Assembly (NCBI GenBank): GCA_028716965.1
Contig: JAQUOV010000001.1
Span: forward strand, 70,448-134,447
Source: Candidatus Omnitrophota bacterium
GTDB lineage: Bacteria; Omnitrophota; Gorgyraeia; Gygaellales; Profunditerraquicolaceae
DNA: 64,000 nucleotides
Direction of reading: 5' to 3'
The first letter of the stretch is position 1, and every line of letters starts with the position of its first letter. Both the position numbers and the translations under genes were made by a program. The notes under the pieces are model-generated. The model made no database searches, was not told where the DNA came from, and saw only the letters and a program-made list of their open reading frames with translations. Positions 29,604-51,342 of this stretch are shown here, piece by piece.

Positions 29604-31130
29604 TTAGATAAAAACCCTTTCGGTATATCTTTCTAATAAATCAGATTTCAACCTATCGTTTAGGACATAATGAAAAGGAGACTTGGTTATTCTTGGTATG
29701 CTCGATATATCCCCTACCAGTTCCCGTATCTTGGGATCAGAATTGTAAATCTCATATGCTTCAGGATCAAGGCCCCCGTAAGTATTAAATGTGATATTAA
29801 AAAACAGCTGGAGCCGATTGAGAAGCTCAATCTTCTTTTCATCAATCCACGGCCGGAATTTAAGGTCAAGGTCTCCATACATGTCAGTTTTACTCCATTC
29901 TTCAAATCGGTCCGGAAATACCAGGCCATACTTTGAAATCATTATATCCGTAAGCGGCGCTCCGGGATAAGGCATATATTGATAAATAGCCATTCTAGAG
30001 GCCGGATTTATATTTTTAAAATCTTTGCATAAATTAACTGTTGCGCGAATATCTTCATCAGTCTCAAAAGGAAATCCCAAAATAAATGTATGCACCGTGG
30101 CTATTCCCATATCATAAAGGCGCTTATTCAATAATTTCATCTTTTCATAACTGGCTCTTTTATTTAATATAGCCTGAATTTTAGGGGAGCCAGTTTCCGG
30201 AGAATAAGCAACATAATCACAGAATCCGGGCAACTCTTTTATTACCCTGTCATGATAAGTATTAAAGTTGCTGCGGATTGCCGATATTTTGTAGCCTTTA
30301 CTCTTAAAAATACGTATAATCTCTACCGCCCTATCCACATCAAGTATGAAATTTTCATCAGACATCTCAAAAACGTCAAAACCGAAATTACGATTCAAAT
30401 AATCAGCTTCCTCCACAACCCGCTCAACATTAAAAGGCCTCCATGGCTTGGCTACACCAATATCGATTCCCCCTTTATAACAGTAAGTACAATTAAACGG
30501 ACAACCGCGTGAAGTAGTAAGTGTAGCAAGAATGGGATATTGCGCAGGATTTAAGTGTTCTGCAAAATGATGCCAAGCCGGCATAGGCAAGACGTTTAGC
30601 GAATCAAGCTGTGCATGCGCGGGCGTCTTTACAATCTTGTCGTTATTTTTAAAATACAGACCGTGGACACTATCCAGCGGCTTATTCCCGGCAATCGCTT
30701 TAGCTAATTCTACCACCGTATAGTCAGCCTCCCCGTAAACAATAATATCCACAAGCGGATGCAGTATCGTTTTTTCCGGGAAAATTGTAGGATGCACTCC
30801 GCCCCATACCAAAGGTACATCCTTATCGTATTTGGAGCGCAACCTATTAGCGATATCAAGGCCGTCCATAATCTGTGACCCGGTCATCGTCGAAATGCCT
30901 ATAAAAAGTATTTCGTCCAGGTCAGATATTTTTTTAAGCAATTCGTCGGTCGTATTTAACCTATGGTCGAGCAGGAGCACAGGAAAACCCGCAGATTCAA
31001 GCGTGGCAGCTAAGACCATAATTGAAAGTGCCGGATAAAGCCTTTTTACTTGATGAGTATCACGCCTGCGTTCTTTAGCATAACCCTGCGTCGGCCGCGG
31101 GTATATCAGTACGATATGTTTATTTTTCAT
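29604..31130 (-). CDS. B12-binding radical SAM enzyme (class B)
   Basis: N-terminal cobalamin-binding-like domain (HIVLIYPRP...) and a radical SAM cluster TSRGCPFNCTYCYKG. Confidence 0.8.
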   Translation of the reverse strand: MKNKHIVLIYPRPTQGYAKERRRDTHQVKRLYPALSIMVLAATLESAGFPVLLLDHRLNTTDELLKKISDLDEILFIGISTMTGSQIMDGLDIANRLRSKYDKDVPLVWGGVHPTIFPEKTILHPLVDIIVYGEADYTVVELAKAIAGNKPLDSVHGLYFKNNDKIVKTPAHAQLDSLNVLPMPAWHHFAEHLNPAQYPILATLTTSRGCPFNCTYCYKGGIDIGVAKPWRPFNVERVVEEADYLNRNFGFDVFEMSDENFILDVDRAVEIIRIFKSKGYKISAIRSNFNTYHDRVIKELPGFCDYVAYSPETGSPKIQAILNKRASYEKMKLLNKRLYDMGIATVHTFILGFPFETDEDIRATVNLCKDFKNINPASRMAIYQYMPYPGAPLTDIMISKYGLVFPDRFEEWSKTDMYGDLDLKFRPWIDEKKIELLNRLQLFFNITFNTYGGLDPEAYEIYNSDPKIRELVGDISSIPRITKSPFHYVLNDRLKSDLLERYTERVFI

Positions 31131-31927
31131 GCCTTACGCTTCCATGGTAAGAATTCTTTTTCGATATCTGCGCCTTCTTTACGCAAAGACTTAATATATC
31201 CTTCATTCCTGCCGATACCCTGGTTTATAGCCGCTATTTCCGGATGGGCTTTTAAAAAATCAAGGATATCCTGCATATAAAAAACTTTATCCACGCTTTT
31301 GTATAAACCCTTATATATCTCACTGACAAATAAAAAATCTTTTTCTTCATCAACGGTCCAGCGCATATGCGAAAGATCCTCATCGCAAGCGACATTTAAC
31401 TGCCGGAATATCCGGTTATTCTTCCAGATATACGAGGTTACATATTCCCGCTCCGTTTGTTTCTTGGCCTCTTTCCAAGCCTTCTCCAGCGCCGCAAATG
31501 AAAAAATCTCCGCATCTAAACCGTCGGGATATGTGGGAGGAATACAAATAGTGCCATAATCAACGTTCCCTTTATTTTTAAGATAACAATTAATCAATTT
31601 ATCGATTACCTTAGGATCTATTAATGGGCAGTCAGCGGTAATTCTGATAATCGGATCCGCGCAAAATTTACTTGCGGCCTGATAATATCTGTCCAGCACA
31701 TCATCTTCACTGCCGGCAAAGAACTCAACACCGCACTCTTGGGCAACACCAAGAATCGGCCGGTCTATTTCTTTTATGCTGGTTGCCACAATAATTTTTT
31801 CAATTAAATGCGATTTTTTTAACCGGTTTATTAAATGCCATAACATCGGCTTACCCAGGATTTCCCGCAAAACCTTCCCGGGAAGCCGGGTTGAAGACAT
31901 TCTTGCCTGAACGATTGCTGCAATCAT
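31127..31927 (-). CDS. Cytidylyltransferase, SpsF/NeuA-like (CMP-nonulosonate/ulosonate synthetase family)
   Basis: MIAAIVQARMSSTRLPGKVLREILGKPMLWHLINR is the canonical N-terminal nucleotide-binding motif of the CTP-transferase family 3 (SpsF/KdsB/NeuA). Confidence 0.75.
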   Translation of the reverse strand: MIAAIVQARMSSTRLPGKVLREILGKPMLWHLINRLKKSHLIEKIIVATSIKEIDRPILGVAQECGVEFFAGSEDDVLDRYYQAASKFCADPIIRITADCPLIDPKVIDKLINCYLKNKGNVDYGTICIPPTYPDGLDAEIFSFAALEKAWKEAKKQTEREYVTSYIWKNNRIFRQLNVACDEDLSHMRWTVDEEKDFLFVSEIYKGLYKSVDKVFYMQDILDFLKAHPEIAAINQGIGRNEGYIKSLRKEGADIEKEFLPWKRKA

Positions 31928-31940
31928 TTTTACCCCTCTA

Positions 31941-32954
31941 TCAAATTACCATATCCAGCCTAATAATTTCATCAGGGATAATATCTCTTTTTGCCTTTCT
32001 ACCAATAATAAAATCTGTATATCCCGGATTAAGTCCAATACCCGGCCTTTTAAAACTAAGCATATCTTTAGTAATACAGCTGTTCTTAGGGATTCTTTTG
32101 CCGGCGACAATACTGCGCCGGGCGAATTTTAACGTATTTTGTTCAGTTGCTAGGGGCTCCTTAACAGTTGAGCCGAGGATTATTTCGATATGGCGCAGAT
32201 GATCTATCATGGTTTTTAATTCATCAGGCTCCAAAGAAACCGAATAATCAGGGCCCAATTTCGCACGGTCCAATGTAAAATGTTTTTCAATAACTTTAGC
32301 CCCCAACACACCAGCTATCAGCGGCGCAAGATAACCTTCTGTGTGGTCGCAAAATCCGATAATTTCATCAAAGGCAGACTGCAATGTGGCGATTACACGC
32401 AGATTGATCTCTTTTAATGGGGTAGGATAATTTGTATTGGTATGGTAAAGCACGATCTTATCGTTTCCTTCATCTCTTACTGCGTTCCTTGCTATTTCAA
32501 TTTCACCTAAAAACGCTGCCCCGGTAGAGATAAATAACGGCAGTCCGGTTTTTGCGCAATATTTAATAAACGGAGTATTAGTTATATCGCCTGAAACTAT
32601 CTTTATAAAATCAATACCAAAATCAACCATCTCATCAACGCTTTCTTCATCAATAACGCATATTCCGCAGAGAAGTTTCTTGCTTTTAGCAAAAGAAATC
32701 AACTCTTTAATTTCTTCTTTTTTTAAGACCCATTTTTTCCATTCCAGTTTTTTCGGCCCGGGCTGCTTAATATTAAGCTCACTATCAATGATATGCTGAA
32801 ACGAAATTGCATCGGCTCCTGTATGTGCAGCAGTTTCAACCATCTGTTTTGCTATTTCAAAATTTCCCGAGTGATTGACCCCTGCTTCGGCAATAATAAA
32901 AATGCTCCCTTGCTTACCGATAAACTTATTGCCAATCCTGATTTCTTTAGCCAT
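31941..32954 (-). CDS. NeuB-family nonulosonic acid synthase (sialic/legionaminic/pseudaminic-acid-synthase-like) with C-terminal SAF domain
   Basis: FIIAEAGVNHSGNFEIAKQMVETAAHTGADAISFQ (NeuB TIM-barrel N-terminus) and a C-terminal SAF-like segment. Confidence 0.85.
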   Translation of the reverse strand: MAKEIRIGNKFIGKQGSIFIIAEAGVNHSGNFEIAKQMVETAAHTGADAISFQHIIDSELNIKQPGPKKLEWKKWVLKKEEIKELISFAKSKKLLCGICVIDEESVDEMVDFGIDFIKIVSGDITNTPFIKYCAKTGLPLFISTGAAFLGEIEIARNAVRDEGNDKIVLYHTNTNYPTPLKEINLRVIATLQSAFDEIIGFCDHTEGYLAPLIAGVLGAKVIEKHFTLDRAKLGPDYSVSLEPDELKTMIDHLRHIEIILGSTVKEPLATEQNTLKFARRSIVAGKRIPKNSCITKDMLSFKRPGIGLNPGYTDFIIGRKAKRDIIPDEIIRLDMVI

Positions 32955-32972
32955 GTTTACCTCTTACGAAGT

Positions 32973-33584
32973 TTAAAACTTATTAAAATGCACTACTTTG
33001 ACAAGATCTCTTTTAGGCACATGTAGTATTCCTTTGGCATCCTTCCAGTACTTACAATCATTCCTTAATCTCTCTACTTTGGGGCTTTCAGCGGGATAGC
33101 CCAAGGCTAAGATTGAATCAATTATGAATCTCTTTGGTATATTCAAAATCATACCTAAAGCCACCCTATTAATTGAACCTATCCAGCAGGAACCCATGCC
33201 TTCTTCCGAAGCCGCCAAAATCATATTCTCCATTGCCGCTCCGACATCCCACTGGTAATTTTGTTTACTAATCTTAGTATTAACTAAAACCAGAATGTAG
33301 GCTACCGGTTGCTCCTCCTCTTTAGGCGTGCCATTTGGCGAAATATAACCTGCCCAAGCCAAAGCATTAAAAACACCCTTAAGCGTTTTTTTGTCATTAA
33401 TAACCATAAATTCCAAAGGCTGCAAGTTCGCACCTGAAGGAGCCAAACGCGCGGTATTTACCAATTTTTTCAGAATTCTTAATGGCACCCCATCCTGTTT
33501 AAATCTCCTTATGGAACGCCTGCTCAAAATGAGCTTATAAACTTGATTTTTCAACTTCGGCATAACGTTAATATGTGATTTCAT
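32973..33584 (-). CDS. Nitroreductase-family flavoprotein
   Basis: LILSRRSIRRFKQDGVPLRILKKLVNTARLAPSGANLQPLEF is the classic nitroreductase N-terminal FMN-binding motif (RRSxRxF...APSxxNxQP). Confidence 0.7.
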   Translation of the reverse strand: MKSHINVMPKLKNQVYKLILSRRSIRRFKQDGVPLRILKKLVNTARLAPSGANLQPLEFMVINDKKTLKGVFNALAWAGYISPNGTPKEEEQPVAYILVLVNTKISKQNYQWDVGAAMENMILAASEEGMGSCWIGSINRVALGMILNIPKRFIIDSILALGYPAESPKVERLRNDCKYWKDAKGILHVPKRDLVKVVHFNKF

Positions 33585-34501
33585 AATTTACGGTACCAGT
33601 TCAATGGATTCAGCCAATATTCATCGTTAACTCTTAAAGTTAAAAGTTTCCTCAAAGCAATGTCAGAGAGTTTACATTTTTTCTCTTCCTTAATCGCAAA
33701 CATAAGCTCATCCATTGTGCGTATCCCGACTAACACGGTGCTAACGCCTTTAATTGACAAACAAAATCTCAAAGCTAACCCAGTCAAATCCTCCCAACTA
33801 TCAATATTCATCGTGCTTTTTATCTTCTTAGCAGCGTTTTTCAAGAAGCTCCAATCATTATCCAAATAAGTTATTTTCTTTGTCAGCATTCCCCTAAAAT
33901 AAGCCGAACGACTTATAACCCCTGTATCATTTTTAACGGCAGCTGGCAATACTTTATCCAATATCCTCTGATCCATAATATTAAACGCAATCTGCAAACA
34001 ATCAAAAAAGCCTTTTTCCAATACGGCTAAACCATCAGCGGGCTCATAAACCGAAGCTCCGAAAAACCTGATTAATCCCTGCTTGCGCAGGTTTTTTAAG
34101 TTTTCCAATATTTCAGGTTGCCTAATTATACCGCCTGTTGCATTATGAATCTGTACAATATCAATGCATTCTCTTTTTAATCTTCTTAAGCTTTTGCCGA
34201 TAGACGCCTTAATTGATAAGGCGTCGCTTCTTTTATCAATATTTATTTTGGTTGCGATATAACAAGGTTCTAGCCCAATAGTATCCCCAAGTAATTTTTC
34301 GCTTTCTCCATAACCGGGCGCAGTATCAAAGAAATTAATTCCATTATCTAAAGCTTTATGGAGCATCTTCTTAACGGCCTGTTTCCCCGGCTTTCCATAT
34401 TCGCCGGGAGCCTTGATACCGTAATCAATACCCAGCTCTGTTGAACCAAAACCGACAACCGATACCTTTAACCCAGTTTTACCTAATATTCTATATCTCA
34501 T
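33581..34501 (-). CDS. Aldo/keto reductase
   Basis: MRYRILGKTGLKVSVVGFGSTELG, then INFFDTAPGYGESEKLLG (catalytic D/Y region). Confidence 0.8.
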   Translation of the reverse strand: MRYRILGKTGLKVSVVGFGSTELGIDYGIKAPGEYGKPGKQAVKKMLHKALDNGINFFDTAPGYGESEKLLGDTIGLEPCYIATKINIDKRSDALSIKASIGKSLRRLKRECIDIVQIHNATGGIIRQPEILENLKNLRKQGLIRFFGASVYEPADGLAVLEKGFFDCLQIAFNIMDQRILDKVLPAAVKNDTGVISRSAYFRGMLTKKITYLDNDWSFLKNAAKKIKSTMNIDSWEDLTGLALRFCLSIKGVSTVLVGIRTMDELMFAIKEEKKCKLSDIALRKLLTLRVNDEYWLNPLNWYRKL

Positions 34502-34593: not shown

Positions 34594-36426
34594 TCAATTG
34601 CCTAAAAAAGGCTCAAGCGTTTCTTCAGAAACCGGTGTAAAATATAAGTCACGTATACGCAGTGATTCGGCTTTAAAACGCGAGCGTTCGGACAAAGACA
34701 GCGAATAGTAATATGTTAACGCCAAAGCAAGCTCTGAAGATGAATAACATACACGGGCAATCCCATCGGGTATAGCAACTAGCGGATTGTGGCTAAAACA
34801 ATTCTGCCTGGCCACAAAAATCACAGGCCTATTGCAAGCTAAGGCCTCAACAAGCGAGCTGGAATGTGTCCCAACCACAACCAATGCCCGGGAAAACTCC
34901 TCTTTAAGGGTCTTATCGCATAACTGCCCGGGCCATTCACCAATTTTTAAACTAAGGGAGCCCATATCCAAAAAAGGATGGCTCTTGATCCGAATCGCTA
35001 TATCCTGCACAAGTAACTTTTTCGCTTCTCGAACAAGGCTTAAGAGTTCAAGCGCCTCATCGTGGATATACGGGAGTAATACCAAAATATTCTTTTTAAT
35101 AACATCTTGATCAATATCAGGAAGATTATCAAACACATGGGCACTGCGTAGAGCAGCGCAAGGCAAGCATCTAAACCCATCGCTAAATGCCTTTGCCATT
35201 TCGCATTGTAATTTGCTGACACACAAAACTGTGTCCGGTACAACCCTGAATCTGACTTCTGTTTTAGTGGGAAAATGATTTAAGAAATTCAGCGAATGCA
35301 TAAACATCTGAACACCAATAAGTTTGGCTTTAGGGAATGCTTCCCGCGCTCCAAAAATAAAAGCCCGGTCAATTACCTGATTTTCGTACCAATCTAGAAT
35401 AATCTCCGGCGAAGGTTGATTTTGCTTAAACCTCATAAAAAAACGATAAATAAGCACTGCATACATAGGACCGGAAAAAAGCGCAAATCTTCGTTCCTCT
35501 TTTATTAATGGAGTAATATCTATCCCTAAAAAAGGCATAGTTTTAATACCCCTGCCAAAGAATCTTAACGGATAAAGAATAATACTGGCATAATCCCTAA
35601 AGCGCAAATAATCCTCAGGCAAGACAAACTGATAGTTGCTTTTACGCATCTGCTTATAAAGCGAATAAAAATTCATCTGGGCAATATCCAAAACAGGGTG
35701 AATCATAATACTATAACTTTTGGACTCTAAAAACTGGTACAAACCCGGATAATAAGGATCATAAAATGAATTACTATCTTGGAATGAATTGGCATGGATG
35801 AATGTATCGATAAGTATGCGTGGATGCCCTAAAATGGTTTTTTTCTGCTGTCCGTGCGCCCTAGTGAATGAAGCTGCCATAAGGCGGGATAGTAATTGAC
35901 AGATAAAAAAACAATAATTATGTAAGCTACTTAAGCTTCTTTTTATTGTCTTACCTATAAAGAAATGCCTGTAAAGAATTACTTTAACTCTTTCTTGCCT
36001 TAACCAAGCTGCCAAAACATTCGCCAATCCTTCAGAATCAACAAAAATTATAGTAGGCAACTCTAAAGAATTTTGACTAAAAATTCCCCTAATTATCTCA
36101 ACATAACAACAATTTTGAAAGAGATCGCTTTCGTATACATTTCTGCAAGAAACAGATTCAAACCACCATTCTTTATTGGTGCCCCGTAAATCGTTTAATT
36201 CATCCAGCCAATCAATGAACGGTTTACGAATTCGTTCAGCAACAATATTATGCAGTTTACCGACTATTATTTGCCTAAAATGGCTCGGCAGTTTATTTTC
36301 AAGGGGATTAACGGCTGAAAAATCTTTACCAAGATAAAGCCAGTTTATTGATTGACCGCGGTTCTTAAATCTTTTTACCGCGTAAGCATAATAACTAACT
36401 GGCAAGATTAATACTGAAGCGCTCAT
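34594..36426 (-). CDS. Large (610 aa) uncharacterized protein, possible GT-B-like transferase
   Basis: No canonical motif. The C-terminal VVVGTHSSSLVEALACNRPVIFV loosely resembles the donor-binding region of GT-B / glycerophosphotransferase folds. Confidence 0.3.
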   Translation of the reverse strand: MSASVLILPVSYYAYAVKRFKNRGQSINWLYLGKDFSAVNPLENKLPSHFRQIIVGKLHNIVAERIRKPFIDWLDELNDLRGTNKEWWFESVSCRNVYESDLFQNCCYVEIIRGIFSQNSLELPTIIFVDSEGLANVLAAWLRQERVKVILYRHFFIGKTIKRSLSSLHNYCFFICQLLSRLMAASFTRAHGQQKKTILGHPRILIDTFIHANSFQDSNSFYDPYYPGLYQFLESKSYSIMIHPVLDIAQMNFYSLYKQMRKSNYQFVLPEDYLRFRDYASIILYPLRFFGRGIKTMPFLGIDITPLIKEERRFALFSGPMYAVLIYRFFMRFKQNQPSPEIILDWYENQVIDRAFIFGAREAFPKAKLIGVQMFMHSLNFLNHFPTKTEVRFRVVPDTVLCVSKLQCEMAKAFSDGFRCLPCAALRSAHVFDNLPDIDQDVIKKNILVLLPYIHDEALELLSLVREAKKLLVQDIAIRIKSHPFLDMGSLSLKIGEWPGQLCDKTLKEEFSRALVVVGTHSSSLVEALACNRPVIFVARQNCFSHNPLVAIPDGIARVCYSSSELALALTYYYSLSLSERSRFKAESLRIRDLYFTPVSEETLEPFLGN

Positions 36427-37469
36427 AAAAACATGTTCTTTCTATTTAACCCATCTACAAAAAAACTTTTGATCAAATGGCGATTTTTAATTTTCAGCCT
36501 CTTCCTGTTCCGCAGAGGCCACGGTGTAAGATCCTTATAGAAACTATGGCATTTCTTGCATAATACAGGAGGAGACAACCGCTTCATCGAGCTGCGGATA
36601 GCCTCTGCGCGCTCCGATGCCCATATCTGACTAATACTTCCGTCTGACATTATATTACCGATCTTAAGCTCAAGATTCATATCTATACAACAGAGTGTTG
36701 CATCGCCAGTAGCGCTCACTGCCAGCATCTCAAAAGGTATTGAGCAAGGTTTCGGGATTTTAAGAATATAGTCCTTTGCCGCATGCAATACATTCTCTGC
36801 TGGAACCTGGCCTGCCCAGTCAATGCTGTCCACCGTCACCAGGCTGGTATTCTTAAATTTCTCAACAAATTGAAAACTTTCATAAAATTTATCAGTTGAA
36901 TCCTGATTTACCATGTTCTTTATAATGCCCACATGAACCGCTACATCAAATTTCTTCAGCCTATCCCTCTCCTCTAAAAGGAACCTAATATTATCCTTTA
37001 CTGTGGTAAATGACCCGCCGGTGCGTATTTTGGCGTAACTGTCATTAGAAAAACCATCAGGCCAGATACCTATAGAGTCAAAACCGGGAAGTAACAATTT
37101 AGCCACCACCTCCTTTTTTTCCAAAGAGACAGTAGTTGATATCCCGAAGTGAGTATTGGGAAGCTTTTGCCGAGCCCATGAAACAAAAACATCAAAATCA
37201 TTTCTCATGGTTATCTCGCCGAACATATGAAATCCTAAAAGCTTCAAATCCGGATAATCACGAGTTATGTCAACAATCACTTTCTCAAAGACTTCTTTCG
37301 GCATGTTCCCTCTTTTATTATTGGAATAAGTGCGGGGACAAAGCGGGCAACGTAAATTACATGCCCCTGTAATTTCAACAAAAACCTTTTGAGGGGGTGT
37401 AGTCTTCGGATTAAATGAATAATACTGTTGTAAACGTTTTAGTTTTGCAATCATCTGACTACTCGACAA
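36423..37469 (-). CDS. Radical SAM enzyme with C-terminal SPASM/twitch-like Cys-rich domain
   Basis: VEITGACNLRCPLCPR (CxxxCxxC) and a C-terminal CCIDMN...GNIMSDGSISQIWAS...CKKCHSF. Confidence 0.75.
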   Translation of the reverse strand: MSSSQMIAKLKRLQQYYSFNPKTTPPQKVFVEITGACNLRCPLCPRTYSNNKRGNMPKEVFEKVIVDITRDYPDLKLLGFHMFGEITMRNDFDVFVSWARQKLPNTHFGISTTVSLEKKEVVAKLLLPGFDSIGIWPDGFSNDSYAKIRTGGSFTTVKDNIRFLLEERDRLKKFDVAVHVGIIKNMVNQDSTDKFYESFQFVEKFKNTSLVTVDSIDWAGQVPAENVLHAAKDYILKIPKPCSIPFEMLAVSATGDATLCCIDMNLELKIGNIMSDGSISQIWASERAEAIRSSMKRLSPPVLCKKCHSFYKDLTPWPLRNRKRLKIKNRHLIKSFFVDGLNRKNMFL

Positions 37470-38967
37470 GATTCAATAAACCACTTTCTAAAAATTCATT
37501 TTTTAATTCATCGTAAATCTTTTGCCCTTCCGGAGTTTCAGCTTCAGCTTTTCGAATCTCCGTCCACCGGGATTCCGGGAATTTCACATACATATTAAAT
37601 GTCTTCACCAGGCCATTAACTTCTGATTGTGGAAATTGAGGCATATTCAAAAGTGAACCGCCAATAACAACTGACTGTACAATATCTTCGTAACTGATAA
37701 AACCTAAGCGCTCACATTCATCCCGTAACGGCGTACCATGAAACGGCGTAAATGGATAAGCATTACGATCCCATGATCTCACGAGCCGGTTAAACCTAAT
37801 AGTATCAAATGCAAGATCCCTGGTTTCATGAGGAAATCCTATAAGATTATTTACGCTGAAAGGAATGCCGGATTCTTCAATTAGCCTGAATTTTTCCAGC
37901 ATCGCCTGGTTGCTTATTCTACGATTGAGCACATTCTGCCTGAATTTCTCATTACCATGCTCAATACCAAATGACATCCGTGCGCAGTTGATCTTTTTTA
38001 AAGCGGCTAATCTGTCTTTGGTTATTGTTTCTACGCGTGTCTGGCACCAAAATGGTAACTTAATTTGTTGATACATTGAACAAAATTCCTCAAACTCTTC
38101 ATTAGTCCAACACAAAAATGTATCTGCCCAAAAATACAAATACTCAGCCTTCATTGTATCTTTGTAAAATAATAATTCTTTAAGGATATTTTCGTTTGTT
38201 TTTTTGCGTAAAAAAGAGCGCCCCTGTTCTTTCCGGTAAAGGATCATCTGCGCAGGAGAATTACAATACGCGCACGTATTGGGACAACCGCGGAATGTTT
38301 CAACGGGAAACATCCTATAAACCTTGCCCCCCATGGGCCGGTAAAAACGCGCTTCTTCAAAAATCGACATATCAATCAATGGATTTTTATTTATATCTAC
38401 CATCCTGAGCGGATTTTTCTTGATGGTTCCGTCTCCTTGCTTGACCCATAAATTCGTAACATCATCGTATTTCAAGCCGTTTTCCAGCCGATAACACAAC
38501 TCGACTAACGCATCCTCACCTTCACCGCGACAAATAATATCTACTTCCGGATAGCTTAATACTAAATCGGGGGCAAAAGTCGGAAAAACTCCCCCCGCAA
38601 TCGCGGGTATTTCCAGATCGCTCACCTTTGATAAAAGCTTAATCCCAAGCTTAAACATATCTTCCGTGCAGGAAAGCCCGATCAAATCCGGTTTAAAATC
38701 CAAAACGCTTGAGCGAAAATCATCAAAACAGTTTGTTGTTTTGCATGAAATCTGGCGCGGCATTTCAAACGGACGGGCCATTAATCGGTCAGATTTTGAC
38801 TTATCCGAATCCGCTTCCTTACCGTCAACCGACTTGTAGTAAGTTGTATCAAATAGCTGAACCTCATATCCTGCCCGTTTCAAAACAGCAGATAATAACC
38901 CAATAGCCGAGGGAAGCATATTCATTCCTCTTGCATTCGGATAAACAAGCATAACTTTAAACGCCAT
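37459..38967 (-). CDS. B12-binding radical SAM enzyme (class B)
   Basis: MAFKVMLVYPNARGMN...GYEVQLFD (B12 domain) and FRGCPNTCAYCNSP (CxxxCxxC). Confidence 0.8.
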   Translation of the reverse strand: MAFKVMLVYPNARGMNMLPSAIGLLSAVLKRAGYEVQLFDTTYYKSVDGKEADSDKSKSDRLMARPFEMPRQISCKTTNCFDDFRSSVLDFKPDLIGLSCTEDMFKLGIKLLSKVSDLEIPAIAGGVFPTFAPDLVLSYPEVDIICRGEGEDALVELCYRLENGLKYDDVTNLWVKQGDGTIKKNPLRMVDINKNPLIDMSIFEEARFYRPMGGKVYRMFPVETFRGCPNTCAYCNSPAQMILYRKEQGRSFLRKKTNENILKELLFYKDTMKAEYLYFWADTFLCWTNEEFEEFCSMYQQIKLPFWCQTRVETITKDRLAALKKINCARMSFGIEHGNEKFRQNVLNRRISNQAMLEKFRLIEESGIPFSVNNLIGFPHETRDLAFDTIRFNRLVRSWDRNAYPFTPFHGTPLRDECERLGFISYEDIVQSVVIGGSLLNMPQFPQSEVNGLVKTFNMYVKFPESRWTEIRKAEAETPEGQKIYDELKNEFLESGLLNLVE

Positions 38968-38982
38968 TATAATCCTTTCATT

Positions 38983-39624
38983 TCATAAGGTGTCCAAAAT
39001 TGCAGGGAGCTCAGAAAAATCATTCATTTTTAAACAATCGCTTGCTTTAAAAATATTCTCGTTATTCTTGATACGCGCGATAAACTTTACCCCGTTATCT
39101 TTTGCCGCTAAATAATCACTCATTGCATCTCCGATATATAAAGCACCCTGCGCGCTGATCTTATTATCCATAAGGATTTTCTTTACCGCATCAAACTTTG
39201 CCAGCGGGGCGCCATACACAGATATAAATATCTTATCTAAACCTCTCCTGCGCACGATATCACTTATCTCATCTTGAGGAGTTGCAGAAACAATAAATAA
39301 TTTGCTCTGTTTTGATCTGTTAATGAGAAATTCCTGAACCCCCTTCACGTAAGGAGCCTTAACTACGGCATCTAATACTAAAGAAGCGAATCTTGTGCAG
39401 AGAGAGTTGAATTCTTTATCATCAAGCTGCCGGTGCAGGATATTACGGTATATGTAGCGGAATTTGTCAAACCGGGATACCCCCATGTTGTCCTTATGAT
39501 ATGATACAACCTTTTCAACAACTCTCTCTCCTTCTATCTCAAAAAGTTTAGCGAAAGCCTCTGTTTTTATATCAGTGGACTCAACGATTACCCCGTCAAA
39601 ATCAAAGATTATTCCCTTAATCAT
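38983..39624 (-). CDS. HAD-superfamily hydrolase (phosphatase/beta-phosphoglucomutase-like)
   Basis: MIKGIIFDFDGVIV (DxDG motif I), then SATPQD (motif II) and GDAMSD (motif IV). Confidence 0.8.
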   Translation of the reverse strand: MIKGIIFDFDGVIVESTDIKTEAFAKLFEIEGERVVEKVVSYHKDNMGVSRFDKFRYIYRNILHRQLDDKEFNSLCTRFASLVLDAVVKAPYVKGVQEFLINRSKQSKLFIVSATPQDEISDIVRRRGLDKIFISVYGAPLAKFDAVKKILMDNKISAQGALYIGDAMSDYLAAKDNGVKFIARIKNNENIFKASDCLKMNDFSELPAILDTL

Positions 39625-40282
39625 TGAATTCTCCGATTACCATACAAGGCGCGCTATCAATGCCAGAAACTACTATCGGCGATATTATCACTCTGCGCAA
39701 AACGGGTAATTTAAGATTAATGCGCATATCTTCAACTAAAAGCAGAGCTCTATCTTGACCCTTGGAGTCTAAAAAAGCCCGATGCGCCTCCCTGCCAAGC
39801 TCTCTATTCTTAATTGAAGATATAGATAACCAATCTATACCTATGGCCCTTAGATTACGGCAGTTTTTCTTCAAATAAACCGCTACTTCCGGATGTATAC
39901 CCGGGTTTTGTTCTACATATTTCTTATGCCTTCTTAAGGCCGACCATCCTGACCTGAATATCAAGATATCGCACAAAGGATTTATTGCTTTCATCCATTT
40001 GCCGATCCTCAGTATCTCCGCGGGCCCCAAAGGGGTATTAATGACCTGCGGAGCTGTAAAAACCCATTCCGAGCACGGATAATCCTCTATACATTTTCCG
40101 TTATCAAAGAAATGGCGTGGGGCATCTATATGCGTACCCCAATGGCTTTCCATGGAAAACTTATAAACATTCGCGTTATCCCCGGATGATATGGCGCGTT
40201 TTGCCTTAATCCCCAGATCAGCCTTACCGCCATATACCGGCATACCCTGTGAAACGGGATAAGACAAATACCTGTATTTCAT
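39617..40282 (-). CDS. Cyclase-family metal-dependent hydrolase (kynurenine-formamidase-like fold)
   Basis: HWGTHIDAPRHFFDNG matches the HxGTHxDxPxH signature of PF04199 cyclase family proteins. Confidence 0.65.
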   Translation of the reverse strand: MKYRYLSYPVSQGMPVYGGKADLGIKAKRAISSGDNANVYKFSMESHWGTHIDAPRHFFDNGKCIEDYPCSEWVFTAPQVINTPLGPAEILRIGKWMKAINPLCDILIFRSGWSALRRHKKYVEQNPGIHPEVAVYLKKNCRNLRAIGIDWLSISSIKNRELGREAHRAFLDSKGQDRALLLVEDMRINLKLPVLRRVIISPIVVSGIDSAPCMVIGEFND

Positions 40283-41205
40283 CGTTTTTTCTTATCCTTG
40301 ATTACCATCCCATCGCAAGTAGGCAGTGGGCTGATCTGTTTATACGCATCATATACTGACTCCAGAATACCCTGGCTAAGATCCAAATAAGTTTTGCTAA
40401 TGAGCCGCCTACCGATCTTCGGGGCAAAAGAATACGGCGTAATCTCATAATGCGTATTCTCTTTTGAAGGAAGAAATTCCACTTTCACATTATTGCCTAA
40501 CATTTCCCTGATCATGAAAAATAAATCTTTAACCTTCATTTGCTGGTTTCCGGTTAAAATAACATGCTGGTTGACGAATTCATCAGACAGTATTTCTACG
40601 CTTCCCTTTGCGGCATCACAGACATGGATATACTCTCTAATCTCTTCCCCGTCACCATGCCGGGATATCCTATTCTGAGTCAAAGCCTGCCTTATAATAT
40701 TATAGATGAAGTTTCTATCATCTGCCCTGGGGCCATATAGCGAACCGTAACGCAAAATGGTGTATGGCAGATTGAATACTTCGTGATAATTTTCTATCAA
40801 GAGTTCACAGGCTTGTTTTGTGCTCCTGTAAAATGCTCCAGCTTTGCTATACACATAAAGGGAACTGGCAAAGACAAAACGCTTTGCCCCTGCTTTTCTG
40901 GCTGCCTCTAACAGGATAGAATTGCCAAGGATATTGCATTTTACGCTCTCAAGCGGCCTTTTGCTTGCCTCATCAATATCGGCAATGCCCGCAAAATTGT
41001 AAACTATATCGCAATTCTTGACGGCTGCCTCCACCTTCTTCTGGTCCAATATGTCGCCTGTTATCATAGACTGCGCTTTTCGTAAATGCGCTGAAGGCTT
41101 GATATCGTAAATTACTACCTTATACCCTGCATCATCTAATGCGTCCGCTACATGGCTGCCAAGAAATCCCGAACCTCCGAAAACTATCGCTTTCATTTTA
41201 ATCAT
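40279..41205 (-). CDS. NAD-dependent epimerase/dehydratase (SDR)
   Basis: MKAIVFGGSGFLGSHVADAL and a YRSTK (YxxxK) motif. Confidence 0.8.
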   Translation of the reverse strand: MIKMKAIVFGGSGFLGSHVADALDDAGYKVVIYDIKPSAHLRKAQSMITGDILDQKKVEAAVKNCDIVYNFAGIADIDEASKRPLESVKCNILGNSILLEAARKAGAKRFVFASSLYVYSKAGAFYRSTKQACELLIENYHEVFNLPYTILRYGSLYGPRADDRNFIYNIIRQALTQNRISRHGDGEEIREYIHVCDAAKGSVEILSDEFVNQHVILTGNQQMKVKDLFFMIREMLGNNVKVEFLPSKENTHYEITPYSFAPKIGRRLISKTYLDLSQGILESVYDAYKQISPLPTCDGMVIKDKKKR

Positions 41206-42113
41206 GCCCCCTCTTTTAAACCCTTAATTAAGTTTCTTACCGCTTCCAACTCCATATTTATCCTGGCCTCTTTGGCGTAAGAGCCTATATGCGGCGTAAG
41301 AATCACATTATCCAATTCCTTAAGCATCCCGCTGTAAGGCTCCTGCTCAAATACATCTATCGCTGCACCCGAAATATCGTTGTTCTTAAGCGCCTTAATC
41401 AAAGCGGCCTCTTCCACGGTTTCTCCGCGCGAAACATTTACGATCCAAGCTCCTTTTTTTAATGCCTTAAACTCTTTCTCTCCTAAAATCTTATCCGTAG
41501 AAGAGGCGTGAATCGTAAGAATATCCGCCCAGCGCAACAATTCTGTTTTCGGCATATTCTTAAATCCCGGATTCGAACTTTTTATGTTTGGGTCCGTATA
41601 GGAAATCTCACAACCAAACGGTTTTAATAACTCGGCTACTTTCTTCCCAATCTTTCCAAAACCGATTATGCCGATTTTCTTATTTGAAAGAAGGTTTCCC
41701 ATCAATTTTTGCCATTCCCCGCGCCGCATAGCCGCATCCATCTTATTTATTTTTCTTAACAGGTTCAACATTAGACCGACGGTTAGCTCTGCCACGGCAA
41801 GCGTTGGGGCATCAGGTGTATTTACTACCTTTATATTGTAATGTTTAGCCGCCTCAAGATCCACATTATCTAATCCTGCCCCACACCTGGAGATTACCTT
41901 TAGCCTTGGCAGAGTTGAAATTATATTTCGATCGATCAATTCTGTCCCGGCGATTAAGCCTGCGGCATCTTTTGCTAATTTAACTAATTCTTCAGGTTTT
42001 ATCTTACGGCCATAGGGGTTAGCCATTATTCTATAACCGCTCTTCTCTAGTAATTCGAGAGGAGACTTATCGTATTCTGCAAATGAAGTTGTCGAAATGG
42101 CTATAATTTTCAC
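41202..42113 (-). CDS. D-isomer-specific 2-hydroxyacid dehydrogenase (phosphoglycerate-dehydrogenase-like)
   Basis: GIIGFGKIGKKVAELLKPFGCEISYTD (NAD GxGxxG), then a catalytic R/E/H arrangement (SRG...E...TPHIG). Confidence 0.85.
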   Translation of the reverse strand: MKIIAISTTSFAEYDKSPLELLEKSGYRIMANPYGRKIKPEELVKLAKDAAGLIAGTELIDRNIISTLPRLKVISRCGAGLDNVDLEAAKHYNIKVVNTPDAPTLAVAELTVGLMLNLLRKINKMDAAMRRGEWQKLMGNLLSNKKIGIIGFGKIGKKVAELLKPFGCEISYTDPNIKSSNPGFKNMPKTELLRWADILTIHASSTDKILGEKEFKALKKGAWIVNVSRGETVEEAALIKALKNNDISGAAIDVFEQEPYSGMLKELDNVILTPHIGSYAKEARINMELEAVRNLIKGLKEGA

Positions 42114-42122: not shown

Positions 42123-42944
42123 CTACCAATCTTTATATTTAGAAGACCAGCTGCTATCCCTGCTAAGCACCAGGCCATAAAATCCCTCATAATCGCTCTT
42201 TCTCCAGTAAGGGCGCGTAACCCTTAATAAGCCTCTCTGCGGATATTGCAGATAGATATTTTCGGTTTTAATGCGCCAACCGGAGTGCAAAATAAGTAAT
42301 TTCCAATCGTTTGGGCTCAATTCAAAGATGTGCGTATTCTCGGCATAAACGTCACTTTGTGCACAGTGCCGAATATGATGTAATCCTACCCTGCTATTCG
42401 CAAGATAAGGTACGGTCACTATTAAATACTCTGCTTTTGTGCCTAATGACAAACTCCGCAAAAAATTGCACGGATCCATTAGATGCTCTAATGTCTCAAA
42501 ACATAAGAAAATATCTGCTTTAATGTCGTAGTTTTCCAAGTTTTCAGCTTTTGCGCAAACAGCGTCCAAACCCTTAGCCTTGATCCTGGCAACCGCTTTT
42601 TCATCAAGATTCACGCTCATTGATCTTACCTTAACCTTTTGCGAATAAAGGCCTTTTATGTATTGTATGTGAGTGCCGGCAGAATCACCAATATCAACAA
42701 TTACGGCTGAATCCTGAAAATTACGCATCGCCTTATCAAGCAGAGACATTTGGAAAGCATGCATTGCCCTCACTTTTGCCTTAAGATAACCTTCCTTAAC
42801 TTCAAACAAGCTGTATTGCTGGCTTATATCAGGGACTATTCTTTCTAACTTGTCCACCAACACTTCAAGCCCCTGCTCTCTAACAGCGCACCTGATCGAT
42901 CTTGTCAGTATTGTTTGCACGGGGATTATACTGCTTATATTCAT
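42123..42944 (-). CDS. Class I SAM-dependent methyltransferase
   Basis: VVDIGDSAGTHIQYIKG (motif I-like) and LCFETLEHL (motif II/III). Confidence 0.55.
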   Translation of the reverse strand: MNISSIIPVQTILTRSIRCAVREQGLEVLVDKLERIVPDISQQYSLFEVKEGYLKAKVRAMHAFQMSLLDKAMRNFQDSAVIVDIGDSAGTHIQYIKGLYSQKVKVRSMSVNLDEKAVARIKAKGLDAVCAKAENLENYDIKADIFLCFETLEHLMDPCNFLRSLSLGTKAEYLIVTVPYLANSRVGLHHIRHCAQSDVYAENTHIFELSPNDWKLLILHSGWRIKTENIYLQYPQRGLLRVTRPYWRKSDYEGFYGLVLSRDSSWSSKYKDW

Positions 42945-43723: not shown

Positions 43724-43724
43724 T

Positions 43725-50144: not shown

Positions 50145-50848
50145 TTAGAAGTACCTCCTTTAATAAGCTCTAATGTTTCTTTCGGCCCTACATTCATAAG
50201 CGCATCCGCAATTGAGAGGTAAGGAATAAAGCTATGAAGCGAACCAATCTGCTTATATTCTTTCGGTGTAAAACTCTGAAATATCACTTCAATATCTGCA
50301 ACAGGGAAAACTCCATCTTCCAGCATATATTCGAAAGCCCCCTTAGCAGAGAAGTACCGCTTTGCGCCACACCAATGTAAAAGCTCTAAAACTCGCTTTG
50401 AACGTTTTGATGATACGGGAAAATCCGAGCTAAGTCGGAATTCACGCTTCAAATCTAATAGACCACAAACCATCTTGATAAAAGATATGTTCATTTCCGC
50501 TAAAGAACTAAAATCTCCAAAAATCCATTCCTTTAGAGGTTTCAACATATCCTTAAAGAATGGTGCTTTTGAATAGTTTAGCTCTATCGCCTTCCACATC
50601 TTCACCCGCCATTTTGTAGCCTCGTTAATCCTTACTTCATTTAGCGGGGCCATAAATGAGGAAGTCTTTTGAACAGGCACAGTATACCATCCTATTTTTT
50701 CTTTATTCACAAAAAGACGGTTACGCTGCTGATAACTCTGCACAGAAAATTGGAAATCATCGAGAAGTATAAAAATTTCCGATCTATATATCAACTCAAA
50801 ATATCCCTGCCAAGGCGCGAAAGTAGGCTGCATCATAGCTACATCCAT
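50087..50848 (-). CDS. WbqC-family protein (conserved nonulosonate-cluster protein of unknown function)
   Basis: MMQPTFAPWQGYFELI...ILLDDFQF... is the characteristic WbqC-like N-terminus. Confidence 0.55.
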   Translation of the reverse strand: MDVAMMQPTFAPWQGYFELIYRSEIFILLDDFQFSVQSYQQRNRLFVNKEKIGWYTVPVQKTSSFMAPLNEVRINEATKWRVKMWKAIELNYSKAPFFKDMLKPLKEWIFGDFSSLAEMNISFIKMVCGLLDLKREFRLSSDFPVSSKRSKRVLELLHWCGAKRYFSAKGAFEYMLEDGVFPVADIEVIFQSFTPKEYKQIGSLHSFIPYLSIADALMNVGPKETLELIKGGTSKWLIWEDMKRRLVLNNQPS

Positions 50849-51339: not shown

Positions 51340-51342
51340 ATC

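Follow-up and report, generated by a model that had tools for sequence, protein, structure and literature searches.

Organization of the locus

Two radical SAM genes of different classes lie next to each other in a glycan locus of a Candidatus Omnitrophota MAG. Their arrangement raises the questions of whether the encoded enzymes act on a peptide or on a carbohydrate, and whether they form a functional unit. The locus exceeds 60 kb and lies in the analysed stretch of DNA (the window, 64,000 nt). The presence of Bac_transf, Wzx, Wzy_C and CapD proteins together with many glycosyltransferases identifies it as a surface-glycan locus of the Wzx/Wzy type. A sequence-only reading had recognized three radical SAM genes, while our count for the locus is six. 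The features discussed below are the following.

8555..10219, minus strand: B12-domain radical SAM protein, 554 aa (PF02310, PF04055)
29604..31130, minus strand: third radical SAM gene, B12-domain, 508 aa, in the NeuB/CMP-transferase module
31127..34501, minus strand: NeuB-family module (aldo-keto reductase, nitroreductase-like protein, NeuB-family synthase, CTP_transf_3 cytidylyltransferase)
34594..36426, minus strand: unk610, 610-aa protein of unknown family
36423..37454, minus strand: Twitch343, Twitch-type (single auxiliary cluster) radical SAM protein, 343 aa from ATG (PF04055, PF13186)
37459..38967, minus strand: B12rSAM502, B12-domain radical SAM protein, 502 aa (PF02310, PF04055)
38983..39624, minus strand: HAD-IA phosphatase-like protein (PF13419)
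39617..40282, minus strand: cyclase-family metal hydrolase (PF04199)
40279..41205, minus strand: NAD-dependent epimerase/dehydratase SDR (PF01370)
41202..42113, minus strand: D-2-hydroxyacid dehydrogenase, PGDH / glyoxylate reductase-like (PF02826, PF00389)
42123..42944, minus strand: class-I SAM methyltransferase (PF08241)
42950..43849, minus strand: KdsB-type CMP-ulosonate cytidylyltransferase (NF009905, TIGR00466)
43725..44747, minus strand: class-I SAM methyltransferase (PF13489)
44717..45478, minus strand: HpcH/HpaI-family class II pyruvate aldolase (PF03328)
51343..52410, minus strand: SPASM355, second Twitch-type radical SAM protein, 355 aa (PF04055, PF13186)
59765..61177, minus strand: B12-domain radical SAM protein, 470 aa, upstream of the pse operon (NCBIfam B12-rSAM family matches)

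The side-by-side position of the two genes is real, with Pfam domains PF02310/PF04055 in one product and PF04055/PF13186 in the other. The HAD-to-aldolase genes, which had been described as following the pair, are all present; they are located upstream of it, because every gene here is read from the minus strand. Among the remaining radical SAM genes, the one at 29604..31130 is syntenic with its counterpart in locus L005 (81% identity), and the product of 59765..61177 carries a CX3CX2C motif at residue 210.

The two genes had also been thought to overlap by 11 nt, because a TTG start at 37469 was assumed. In alignment A1, however, each of the 15 homologues lines up from the methionine encoded by ATG 37454, M1 is invariant, orthologues begin with MIAKLK, MITKVK or MIKKLR, and the public gene call uses the same ATG. 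The junction therefore reads TAG-tcag-ATG, with a 4-nt spacer.

Peptide or carbohydrate substrate

The absence of a nearby precursor-peptide ORF, already proposed from the letters alone, is borne out, and a small gene missed by the ORF caller has no room here. The gaps around the pair measure 15 nt and 4 nt, next to one 4-nt overlap, and each ORF of at least 20 aa in the region is embedded out of frame in a large gene. Likewise, no conserved small ORF occurs in the gaps beside the two Twitch343 orthologues checked (L003 and L005). The idea that the two enzymes mature an overlooked small peptide could draw on weak NCBIfam likeness to ApyD, rSAM_ocin_1, StsB and CcpM, but all these scores are far under their cut-offs, every examined context of relatives with at least 55% identity has glycan-gene neighbours, and the auxiliary domain is of the Twitch rather than the full SPASM type. 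We reject a RiPP system for lack of space for a precursor peptide and consider it hardly credible.

The open reading frame 36423-37469 matches PF04055 (E 1.1e-10) and PF13186, the SPASM family (E 3e-12), and its product has a C-x3-C-x2-C cluster motif. Downstream of the core only C237, C255/C256, C299 and C302 are conserved in alignment A1, and the CX2CX5CX3C motif is absent from this C-terminal part with its five conserved cysteines. With one set of auxiliary-cluster cysteines, Twitch343 has a single-cluster Twitch domain; the SPASM domain first read here is not a full two-cluster one.

The closest solved relative is BtrN, the butirosin 2-deoxy-scyllo-inosamine dehydrogenase (4M7T/4M7S), which likewise combines a radical SAM core with a single four-cysteine auxiliary set and acts on a carbohydrate-like small molecule. 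In the phmmer alignment its four cysteines match C237, C255, C299 and C302 of Twitch343, which has C256 as an extra invariant cysteine. Identity of BtrN to the Twitch proteins of the window is low (18-21%), and anSME, DesII, MoaA and RiPP maturases are close behind in fold searches. The window proteins also exceed BtrN by about 90-100 residues and carry an insert (about 180-235) as well as a C-terminal tail; their context is a cell-surface glycan or nonulosonic acid, whereas that of BtrN is aminoglycoside biosynthesis.

The premise that SPASM-type enzymes act only on peptides or cofactors is wrong, as BtrN, DesII and BlsE use sugars or cyclitols. A carbohydrate substrate, as suggested earlier, is nevertheless the best reading, because no precursor ORF fits and because the closer relatives of Twitch343 (55-81% identity) lie in polysaccharide or nonulosonic-acid loci in all six contexts examined (L003/L004, L005, L091, L093/L094). 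A homologue with 33% identity (L006) has an unrelated context. Among distant metagenomic Twitch relatives a NeuB-family synthase occurs within 10 kb in 22 of 37 loci, and within 3 kb in 17, which connects this Twitch clade with nonulosonic acids. In L003/L004 and L094, however, no NeuB gene lies within 10 kb, hence the substrate of Twitch343 may be another sugar or a lipid-linked repeat unit.

Maturation of a protein by an anSME-like Twitch343 would find a conceivable client in the PF00884 sulfatase-family protein encoded at 4724-6259, and anSME ranks second or third in fold searches. This protein, however, is a membrane-anchored member resembling LtaS and phosphoethanolamine transferases, it lacks the C/S-x-P/A-x-R formylglycine motif, and its gene is 30 kb distant. 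Moreover, anSMEs have two auxiliary clusters as opposed to the one cysteine set of Twitch343, and we attribute next to no probability to such a role.

Conservation of the pair

The back-to-back order had been taken as evidence of a functional pair, but the gene-neighbourhood comparison finds that the pair is not conserved. Close relatives of Twitch343 occur in four other glycan loci at other positions. Orthologues (72-76% protein identity) lie between GT1 and Wzx in L003/L004; the orthologue in L005 lies between NeuB and the CMP-transferase, inside a NeuB module like that at 31127..34501, and the one in L091 follows an unrelated 124-aa ORF. None of these is next to a B12rSAM502 gene. Conversely, Twitch343 orthologues are missing from all 80 B12rSAM502-family loci; the Twitch genes that these loci do contain fall into two other families (22-27% identity), and one is directly adjacent in a single locus of the 80 (L012).

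Consecutive action of both enzymes as an obligate unit on one sugar intermediate, for example oxidation followed by methylation, would be compatible with genes 4 nt apart in one operon, which permits sequential action on one substrate in this genome. In at least 22 of the 80 loci, B12rSAM502 also has some Twitch-type radical SAM gene no more than 10 kb away, and runs of the order Twitch-B12-Twitch-B12 occur in the metagenomic loci L111, L119, L121, L124 and L131. The separate distribution of the two families argues against this, as does a stretch (L136) with the core pathway genes and no B12rSAM502, and we regard an obligate unit as improbable. Instead, we favour, with moderate confidence, two independent carbohydrate-tailoring radical SAM enzymes that are co-transcribed in one Wzx/Wzy locus, and that are neither a RiPP system nor an obligate two-enzyme unit.

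The B12-domain enzyme

B12rSAM502 combines a B12-binding domain (PF02310, E 1.9e-13) with a radical SAM domain (PF04055, E 4.6e-19) and has the cluster motif C228-x3-C232-x2-C235; its gene forms the core of a glycan cassette of wide conservation. The family is large, with 2846 homologues at E<=1e-10, of which the best 120 are all at least 61% identical, and is distributed over more than 12 phyla, SAR11 and Methanoregula among them. The AF2 model (pLDDT 89.5) matches the class-B enzymes MgmA, TsrM, OxsB, AprD4, TokK and CysS in Foldseek. The N-terminal Rossmann B12-binding domain followed by a radical SAM barrel is shared with MgmA/QCMT (9CCB), TokK, CysS, TsrM, GenK and Fom3, although every NCBIfam equivalog model is far under its cut-off. 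The substrate methylated by Fom3 is CMP-linked, and that of GenK is an aminoglycoside sugar.

As neither the B12rSAM502 nor the Twitch343 family has a characterised member, we infer the chemistry of both. For B12rSAM502, cobalamin-dependent methylation of an unactivated sp3 carbon is most likely: a 5'-deoxyadenosyl radical would abstract hydrogen, and methyl-cobalamin would supply the methyl group. The protein may bind cobalamin, a property that cannot be read from sequence alone, and caution is needed because the family is also present in SAR11, a group unable to synthesise B12.

The alternative to a methylase is a cobalamin-independent 1,2-diol dehydratase like AprD4 of the AprD4/AprD3 system (apramycin C3' deoxygenation by dehydratase and reductase), in which a partner SDR would reduce the resulting ketone to give a deoxy centre in a sugar or sugar acid. 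AprD4 binds no cobalamin, which would suit a family found in B12 auxotrophs. It acts on a sugar, has the same two-domain fold and gives the highest TM-scores for the model (0.66-0.67 by query, 0.72-0.73 by target) and a sequence match (E 3.3e-9); the commonest partner of B12rSAM502, often adjacent, is an SDR, paralleling the reductase AprD3. The AprD4 family model, however, gives 35 bits (cut-off 500), while HpnJ, BchE, PhpK and MgmA-type models reach 61-76 bits, likewise far below cut-offs. MgmA is the top match by sequence and in Foldseek, tandem B12rSAM502 paralogues at six loci resemble iterative methylases, and AprD4/AprD3 differ in their aminoglycoside context. We therefore treat a dehydratase as a tentative and rather unlikely alternative to methylation.

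HpnJ, the top NCBIfam match (76.5 bits), and OxsB, one of the top structural matches, each rearrange a sugar by radical ring contraction. Neither comes near its family threshold, and hopanoid or nucleoside-antibiotic genes are absent here. HpnJ and the lipid-biosynthesis model TIGR04072, also far under cut-off, are among the best NCBIfam matches that could suggest a lipid or cofactor substrate (undecaprenyl carrier, lipid A acyl chains or a hopanoid-like lipid) instead of a sugar. The conserved partners, however, are of nucleotide-sugar type (SDR, KdsB-like, aldolase, NeuB) and lipid-biosynthesis genes were not found within the window, which makes such a substrate very unlikely. No class-B member is known to act in polysaccharide biosynthesis, and the words "polysaccharide" and "glycan" are both absent from a 2026 review (PMC12931638).

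Partner genes and a proposed Kdo-like module

Neighbour counts were obtained by tblastn with window proteins as queries, for at most 80 loci per scan, and are lower bounds rather than an unbiased census. The SDR (40279..41205) is the most frequent partner of B12rSAM502, in at least 35 of the 80 loci (at least 22 at 40% identity or more), followed by the 2-hydroxyacid dehydrogenase in at least 21 (median identity 48%; TIGR01327 224 bits, below cut-off). HAD homologues occur in at least 18 (median 42%), immediately upstream in 6, KdsB-like genes in at least 17, and the cyclase-family gene in at least 6 (e.g., L044, L046, L039). Directly upstream of B12rSAM502, class-I methyltransferases are commonest, with homologues of 42123..42944 in this position in at least 4 loci, an observation that is neutral between dehydratase and methylase.

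The cytidylyltransferase passes the cut-offs of NF009905 (306 against 255 bits) and TIGR00466 (163.6 against 155.2 bits), and is shared with the canonical Kdo pathway; its Pfam match starts at residue 46, and the true start is probably M43, at 43723. KdsA, KdsD and KdsC had no match among the module genes scanned, and in their place the module has the HpcH pyruvate aldolase (HpaI, RhmA and GarL models 158-194 bits, below cut-offs), the 2-hydroxyacid dehydrogenase, the SDR and the HAD-IA phosphatase. HpcH-type aldolase genes were counted in at least 10 of the 80 loci, and aldolase and KdsB-like gene occur together in at least about 10. We infer that aldolase, dehydrogenases and phosphatase would make a 3-deoxy-2-ulosonic (Kdo-like) acid, which the KdsB-like enzyme would activate with CMP. 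L136 has a contiguous run HpcH-2HADH-SDR-HAD-KdsB-like with no B12rSAM502 match within its 20.8-kb stretch, which suggests that B12rSAM502 is an optional step.

Relatives of unk610 (20-35% identity) occur in at least 20 of the 80 loci. The protein has no match in Pfam, NCBIfam or PDB; weak DUF6716 (putative glycosyltransferase) matches in 6 of 17 members and local similarity to the LIC12162 transferase (E 2e-4) are weak evidence for a candidate transferase of the module's product.

The pse operon and proposed roles

The second SPASM-annotated gene (51343-52410) indeed lies in a pse operon, with PseB, PseC, PseG and PseI above their NCBIfam cut-offs and a PseH-like protein that falls short of its own. 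The first four are shared with the canonical pathway, to which this operon adds a conserved Twitch radical SAM protein, a class-III aminotransferase, a methyltransferase and WbqC. SPASM355 has invariant cysteines at C87/C91/C94 and C283/C302/C347/C350, and BtrN is its sole match in a PDB sequence search (E 1.4e-11). An Omnitrophota MAG contains the same protein (MDD5560620.1, 100% identity), and orthologues of SPASM355 (57-77% identity) are conserved members of variant pse operons (L089, L090), found with the class-III aminotransferase in Desulfonema magnum and in a flagellin/Maf island of Acetobacterium. SPASM355 probably has a BtrN-like role in a modified pseudaminic-acid pathway, where it would oxidise a hydroxyl at a position that the co-conserved aminotransferase would then aminate.

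By analogy with BtrN, Twitch343 would take the carbinol hydrogen from a hydroxyl of a sugar or nonulosonate, and the radical would become a ketone via the auxiliary cluster; alternatively, it might be re-quenched from the opposite face, giving epimerisation, with the invariant Cys256 as a possible hydrogen donor. B12rSAM502 would act as an optional tailoring step on the Kdo-like acid or its precursor. The two neighbouring enzymes thus most likely modify unusual sugar acids, not peptides.

Locus organisation and gene boundaries

All genes between about 0.5 kb and 64 kb of the window lie on the minus strand in dense packing. With an initiating sugar transferase, Wzx, a Wzy_C protein, a CapD-like dehydratase and numerous glycosyltransferases, the window is a single Wzx/Wzy-type surface-glycan locus. 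It also holds a WbuX/HisH/HisF amidotransferase set, a LIC12162-family transferase (378 bits) and a second NeuB-family module. Six radical SAM genes are encoded, four with a B12 domain and two of the Twitch type, all with the CX3CX2C motif. They include B12rSAM502 (502 aa, B12-domain), Twitch343 (343 aa, SPASM-annotated) and SPASM355, its 355-aa paralogue.

1450-2742 (-): Wzy_C protein
7890-8453 (-): initiating sugar transferase
13940-15238 (-): Wzx
8555-10219, 29604-31130, 37459-38967, 59765-61177 (-): four B12-domain radical SAM genes, mutual identity 20-27%
36423-37454, 51343-52410 (-): two SPASM-annotated radical SAM genes (Twitch343, SPASM355), mutual identity 20%
37459-38967 (-): B12rSAM502 ORF, PF02310 (E 1.9e-13) and PF04055 (E 4.6e-19)
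36423-37469 (-): Twitch343 ORF in its TTG-start form, PF04055 (E 1.1e-10) and PF13186 SPASM (E 3e-12)

The sequence-only reading described Twitch343 and B12rSAM502 as back-to-back genes overlapping by 11 nt. The adjacent genes are real, but the overlap, which requires a TTG start at 37469, is rejected. An exact-match look-up with the TTG-start protein gave no match. The junction reads GAG TAG tcag ATG ATT GCA, the public record of the identical protein places its start at ATG 37454, and in the Twitch343 family alignment 15 of 15 homologues align from this methionine, M1 being invariant; we therefore take ATG 37454 as the start, with the genes 4 nt apart. The HAD, cyclase, SDR, dehydrogenase, methyltransferase, cytidylyltransferase and aldolase genes said to follow the pair were all found, but they lie upstream of it on the minus strand.

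A small precursor-peptide gene missed by ORF calling would turn the pair into a RiPP system. The gaps flanking the pair measure 15 nt, 4 nt and a 4-nt overlap, and between 36.4 and 39.0 kb each ORF of at least 20 aa is embedded in a large gene in another frame. Likewise, no conserved small ORF is present in the intergenic gaps beside the orthologues in L003 and L005, the two homologous loci checked. For lack of precursor space here, and of a conserved small ORF beside these two orthologues, we reject a RiPP system; the carbohydrate reading of the pair is supported. Sulfatase maturation of the anSME kind is ruled out as well, because the only sulfatase-family protein (PF00884, 4724-6259), membrane-anchored and LtaS-like, lacks the C/S-x-P-x-R (FGly) motif and Twitch343 has a single auxiliary Cys set. 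An Rfam scan of the window detected no cobalamin riboswitch and no other Rfam family, and a promoter/terminator scan gave results close to chance, placed no site in the intergenic gaps and is uninformative on operon structure.

Class and relatives of Twitch343

The SAM-cluster motif of Twitch343 (CX3CX2C; C32/C36/C39) lies inside PF04055 and is invariant across the family alignment, in which C237, C255, C256, C299 and C302 are the only invariant cysteines beyond the core. The PF13186 match spans just the shared first part, and CX2CX5CX3C is absent from Twitch343, from SPASM355 and from 23 homologues near B12rSAM502 elsewhere. The SPASM label of the sequence-only reading thus holds for the radical SAM domain and PF13186, but not for full two-cluster SPASM membership with its seven-Cys signature: the protein has one four-Cys set, the Cys complement of the Twitch subclass (abbreviated SPASM, four cysteines, one auxiliary cluster).

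A phmmer search of all PDB sequences gave BtrN as the best match of Twitch343 (E 1.4e-10), followed by ChlB, anSME, DesII and BlsE. Four BtrN cysteines, which we take to be the ligands of its single auxiliary cluster, align opposite C237, C255, C299 and C302, and this Cys complement places the enzymes on the small-molecule/carbohydrate (BtrN) side. The likeness is one of architecture, not of orthology, as BtrN shares 18-21% identity with Twitch343 and SPASM355; this low identity, the glycan/nonulosonic-acid context and the lack of 2-DOS genes rule out a BtrN orthologue (DOIA dehydrogenase).

Twitch343 is rare: a search of 5.8 billion proteins gave 17 matches, and a search of 1.84 billion cluster representatives gave 13 at E<=1e-30. 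Relaxing the threshold to E<=1e-10 adds about 2400 relatives that are full length but more distant. Its nearest homologues, like those of B12rSAM502, belong to Omnitrophota. Orthologues of 72-76% identity are flanked by GT1 and Wzx in L003/L004, lie between NeuB and a CMP-transferase in L005, which is otherwise syntenic with the window (66-85% identity), and follow an unrelated 124-aa ORF near NeuB and WbuX/HisH/HisF in L091. A 59%-identical homologue in L094 is located amid GT1, Wzx, GT2, GT9 and a pyruvyl transferase. The Twitch343 gene moves position within glycan loci.

Metagenomes were scanned with the Twitch343 family, and the 37 loci of at least 9 kb were kept for the study of neighbours; the matches are mostly of 22-29% identity and similar length. 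A NeuB-family synthase lies within 10 kb in 22 of these loci and within 3 kb in 17, a CTP_transf_3 cytidylyltransferase is found in 16, two or more Twitch genes in 15 and a B12-domain radical SAM gene in nine. The Twitch343 clade and its distant metagenomic relatives are tightly linked to NeuB-family synthases. Runs of four radical SAM genes in the order Twitch-B12-Twitch-B12 were seen on five unrelated contigs (L111, L119, L121, L124, L131).

A variant pse operon with SPASM355

The second SPASM-annotated gene stands in a pse operon, as had been read from the sequence: PseB (477 bits, cut-off 408), PseC (507, cut-off 423), PseG (274, cut-off 154) and PseI (468, cut-off 340) score above the NCBIfam cut-offs. 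PseH reaches 67 bits, under its cut-off of 93, and no NCBIfam match at PseF level was obtained for a cytidylyltransferase in the window's operon. In homologous loci L089 (Desulfonema magnum) and L090 the PseF slot is filled by orthologues (48% identity) of the 266-aa CTP_transf_3 protein at 31127-31927, which in L089 is fused to a class-III aminotransferase.

Window, 50087-55704: variant pse operon
L089, 2683-16814: variant pse operon
L090, 3010-13407: variant pse operon

SPASM355 matches MDD5560620.1, encoded in a Candidatus Omnitrophota MAG, at 100% identity, and orthologues of 57-77% identity and about 355 aa occur in Omnitrophota, Saganbacteria, Binatia, Verrucomicrobiota, Desulfonema magnum and Acetobacterium. 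C283, C302, C347 and C350 are invariant in the family, a single auxiliary Cys set, and BtrN is the only PDB sequence match (E 1.4e-11). In Desulfonema and Acetobacterium, SPASM355 belongs to a pse operon whose other additional genes are those of the window: a class-III (GSA-like) aminotransferase (54370-55704 in the window), a methyltransferase of about 295 aa, a PseH-like GNAT and WbqC. The Acetobacterium operon adjoins flagellin and a Maf protein. BtrN works with an aminotransferase in 2-deoxystreptamine synthesis. By analogy, it is an attractive hypothesis that SPASM355 would turn a hydroxyl into a ketone on a Pse intermediate, which the class-III aminotransferase would then convert into an amine.

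In Desulfonema magnum (CP061800, around 3.05 Mb) a B12 radical SAM gene adjoins that of SPASM355, and the pse-type operon ends (L089, 16798-21068) in an ORF of more than 1555 aa in which radical SAM/SPASM and methyltransferase domains occur together with faint glycoside-hydrolase-like ones.

The B12rSAM502 cassette

The SAM-cluster motif of B12rSAM502 (CX3CX2C; C228/C232/C235) is invariant across family alignment A2. There are 2846 homologues at E<=1e-10, of which the best 120 are full length with 61-97% identity. A scan with one genome per species gave at least 80 loci, and the family, which also reaches SAR11 and methanogens, is spread over more than 12 phyla. The bacteria among the 80 loci listed are Omnitrophota, Planctomycetota (including Scalindua), Bdellovibrionota, Nitrospirota (including Magnetominusculus), Nitrospinota, KSB1, Latescibacterota, Elusimicrobiota, Lentisphaeria, Actinomycetota, Alpha- and Gammaproteobacteria and a Nealsonbacteria MAG; the archaeon Methanoregula is likewise among them. 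Fourteen of the 80 are Pelagibacter/SAR11 loci (50-62% identity).

SAR11 loci: L035, L037, L041, L045, L048, L052, L054, L055, L061, L063, L066, L072, L075, L078

Table. Partner genes of B12rSAM502 in the 80 loci (tblastn with window proteins; counts are lower bounds, not an unbiased census)
SDR (40279-41205): at least 35 loci, 22 at >=40% identity
2-hydroxyacid dehydrogenase: at least 21 loci, median 48% identity
Relatives of the 610-aa unknown protein: at least 20 loci, about 25% identity
HAD: at least 18 loci, median 42% identity
KdsB-like cytidylyltransferase: at least 17 loci, median 41% identity
HpcH aldolase: at least 10 loci, median 35% identity

A conserved cassette is built around B12rSAM502. 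In four Methanoregula loci (L047, L060, L069, L076) the B12 radical SAM gene is accompanied by HAD, cyclase, SDR, 2-hydroxyacid dehydrogenase, a Twitch radical SAM gene and an unknown protein of about 620 aa, which points to a glycan module shared between domains.

A Twitch-type gene lies within 10 kb of B12rSAM502 in at least 22 of the 80 loci. They fall into two other families, one of 380-408 aa and one of 320-332 aa, with 22-27% identity to the window genes, and direct adjacency was seen in one locus only, L012. No B12rSAM502 orthologue adjoins the Twitch343 relatives in L003/L004, L005, L091 or L094. Because adjacency is confined to L012 and the families differ, the back-to-back pair of the window is a local arrangement, not a conserved unit. 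The observation of the sequence-only reading was real, with two factual corrections, and its sugar reading is supported; a special coupling of the pair is not supported.

The cytidylyltransferase of the module (42950-43849) passes two KdsB-type models (306 bits, cut-off 255; 163.6 bits, cut-off 155.2). No match to KdsA or KdsD was found among the module genes scanned, and the HAD scored with other phosphatase models only; in place of KdsA, KdsC and KdsD, the module encodes an HpcH aldolase together with a HAD-IA phosphatase. The aldolase resembles the 2-keto-3-deoxy-sugar-acid aldolases HpaI, RhmA and GarL. Homologous locus L136 (14316-18400) carries a contiguous run of HpcH aldolase, 2-hydroxyacid dehydrogenase, SDR, HAD and KdsB-like genes with 40-63% identity to the window proteins, a set that resembles a non-canonical route, by way of a pyruvate aldolase, to a 3-deoxy-ulosonic acid activated with CMP. 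As this five-gene run comes with no B12rSAM502 match within its 20.8-kb stretch, it suggests that B12rSAM502 is an optional tailoring step of the HpcH/KdsB-like pathway.

The KdsB-like ORF in its listed form overlaps the upstream methyltransferase by 125 nt. Its Pfam match begins at residue 46, and the internal M43 (nt 43723) lies 1 nt past the upstream stop; M43 is probably the true start.

Three proteins of 584-649 aa with scant annotation (34594-36426, 47343-49097, 57803-59752) are scattered over the locus, each close to a pse or sugar-acid module. The LIC12162-family transferase is one of them, and the other two lack any match in Pfam, NCBIfam or the PDB; we regard all three as candidate transferases for CMP-activated acids. 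For the 610-aa protein adjacent to the pair (34594-36426), neither the single sequence nor a 17-member profile matched anything in these three databases, and the profile detected neither the LIC12162 transferase nor the 649-aa protein. Weak DUF6716 matches and one local BLASTP match are the remaining hints, and a transferase role for this protein is a guess.

A nitroreductase-family flavoprotein, whose weak N-terminal best match is BluB, and an aldo-keto reductase (both within 32973-34501) lie immediately upstream of the NeuB-family synthase. Both are kept in L005 (6047-7536) at 66% identity and are unusual for a nonulosonic-acid module.

Possible chemistry of B12rSAM502

B12rSAM502 has the class-B architecture of an N-terminal B12-binding Rossmann domain and a radical SAM barrel. 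Its AF2 model (pLDDT 89.5) matches MgmA (9CCB), TsrM, OxsB, AprD4, TokK and CysS, the class-B matches (MgmA, TsrM, OxsB, TokK, CysS) extending over both domains, and the sequence matches agree with those of the fold. MgmA is an MCR glutamine C-methyltransferase (PMC12931638). B12rSAM502 stays below the cut-off of every NCBIfam equivalog compared (HpnJ, BchE, PhpK, MgmA, AprD4, HpnR and others), the best score being 76.5 bits for HpnJ (cut-off 577.6) and the others falling far below as well.

Fold searches do not discriminate between methylase, dehydratase and mutase. We tentatively favour a methylase comparable to MgmA, TokK, GenK and Fom3: the class consists largely of methylases, the best match is MgmA, and tandem paralogues of B12rSAM502 occur in six loci. 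Diol dehydration in the manner of AprD4/AprD3 is a serious alternative that we nevertheless consider rather unlikely, even though an SDR is the commonest partner, AprD4 gives the best TM-scores against the model and the family is present in SAR11. AprD4 has the same fold and is not known to bind cobalamin, and we know of no diagnostic sequence motif for cobalamin binding. SAR11 lacks B12 synthesis and is a B12 auxotroph (PMC9296465), so the SAR11 members of the family would use scavenged cobalamin or be cobalamin-independent. Ring contraction, as by OxsB and HpnJ, would also be compatible with the fold. For B12rSAM502, as for Twitch343, the specific chemistry is inferred, with a methylase as the preferred assignment of the former.

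A possible radical tailoring layer for surface sugar acids

Taken together, Twitch and B12-domain radical SAM enzymes may form a widespread radical tailoring layer for surface sugar acids, a reading that we put forward as possible rather than probable. A Twitch clade of about 320-400 aa would be dedicated to nonulosonic-acid pathways, for example by a BtrN-like oxidation feeding a class-III aminotransferase in variant Pse operons, including those of flagellin glycosylation islands. Members of the B12rSAM502 family would give a CMP-activated 3-deoxy-2-ulosonic acid a C-methyl or deoxy centre, the acid itself presumably being made by the non-canonical route of HpcH pyruvate aldolase and KdsB-like enzyme.

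To our knowledge, radical SAM chemistry on sugars is described almost only from antibiotic pathways (BtrN, DesII, AprD4, GenK, OxsB). We assign the enzymes discussed here to a known, sugar-acting kind, and the novelty lies in placing them in cell-surface sugar-acid biosynthesis. In the open-access literature, which leaves many subscription papers outside, we found no paper linking radical SAM enzymes with nonulosonic, pseudaminic or legionaminic acid or with flagellin glycosylation. The words "polysaccharide" and "glycan" are both absent from a 2026 review of B12-dependent radical SAM enzymes (PMC12931638). In Campylobacter fetus, phase-variable radical SAM genes of the "MoaA/NifB/PqqE/SkfB family" are listed without function amid methyltransferase, SDR and formyltransferase genes (PMC6321876), probably a surface-glycan region.

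The wider link of Twitch and B12 radical SAM genes to nonulosonic and ulosonic acids is of higher interest than the pair itself. Two uncharacterised families, that of B12rSAM502 with more than 2800 homologues, are tied to ordinary surface-glycan loci in abundant or important uncultured groups such as Omnitrophota, Planctomycetota, Nitrospirota, SAR11 and Methanoregula, and the Twitch clade also in a flagellin glycosylation island of Acetobacterium. If the joint reading is true, these enzymes would make sugars of as yet undescribed structure. Confirmation of the chemistry would yield new C-methyl, deoxy, extra-amino or epimeric nonulosonic or octulosonic acids, a new enzymology in the radical tailoring of CMP-sugar acids, and rules by which thousands of genes that at present carry only the label "radical SAM protein" could be annotated.
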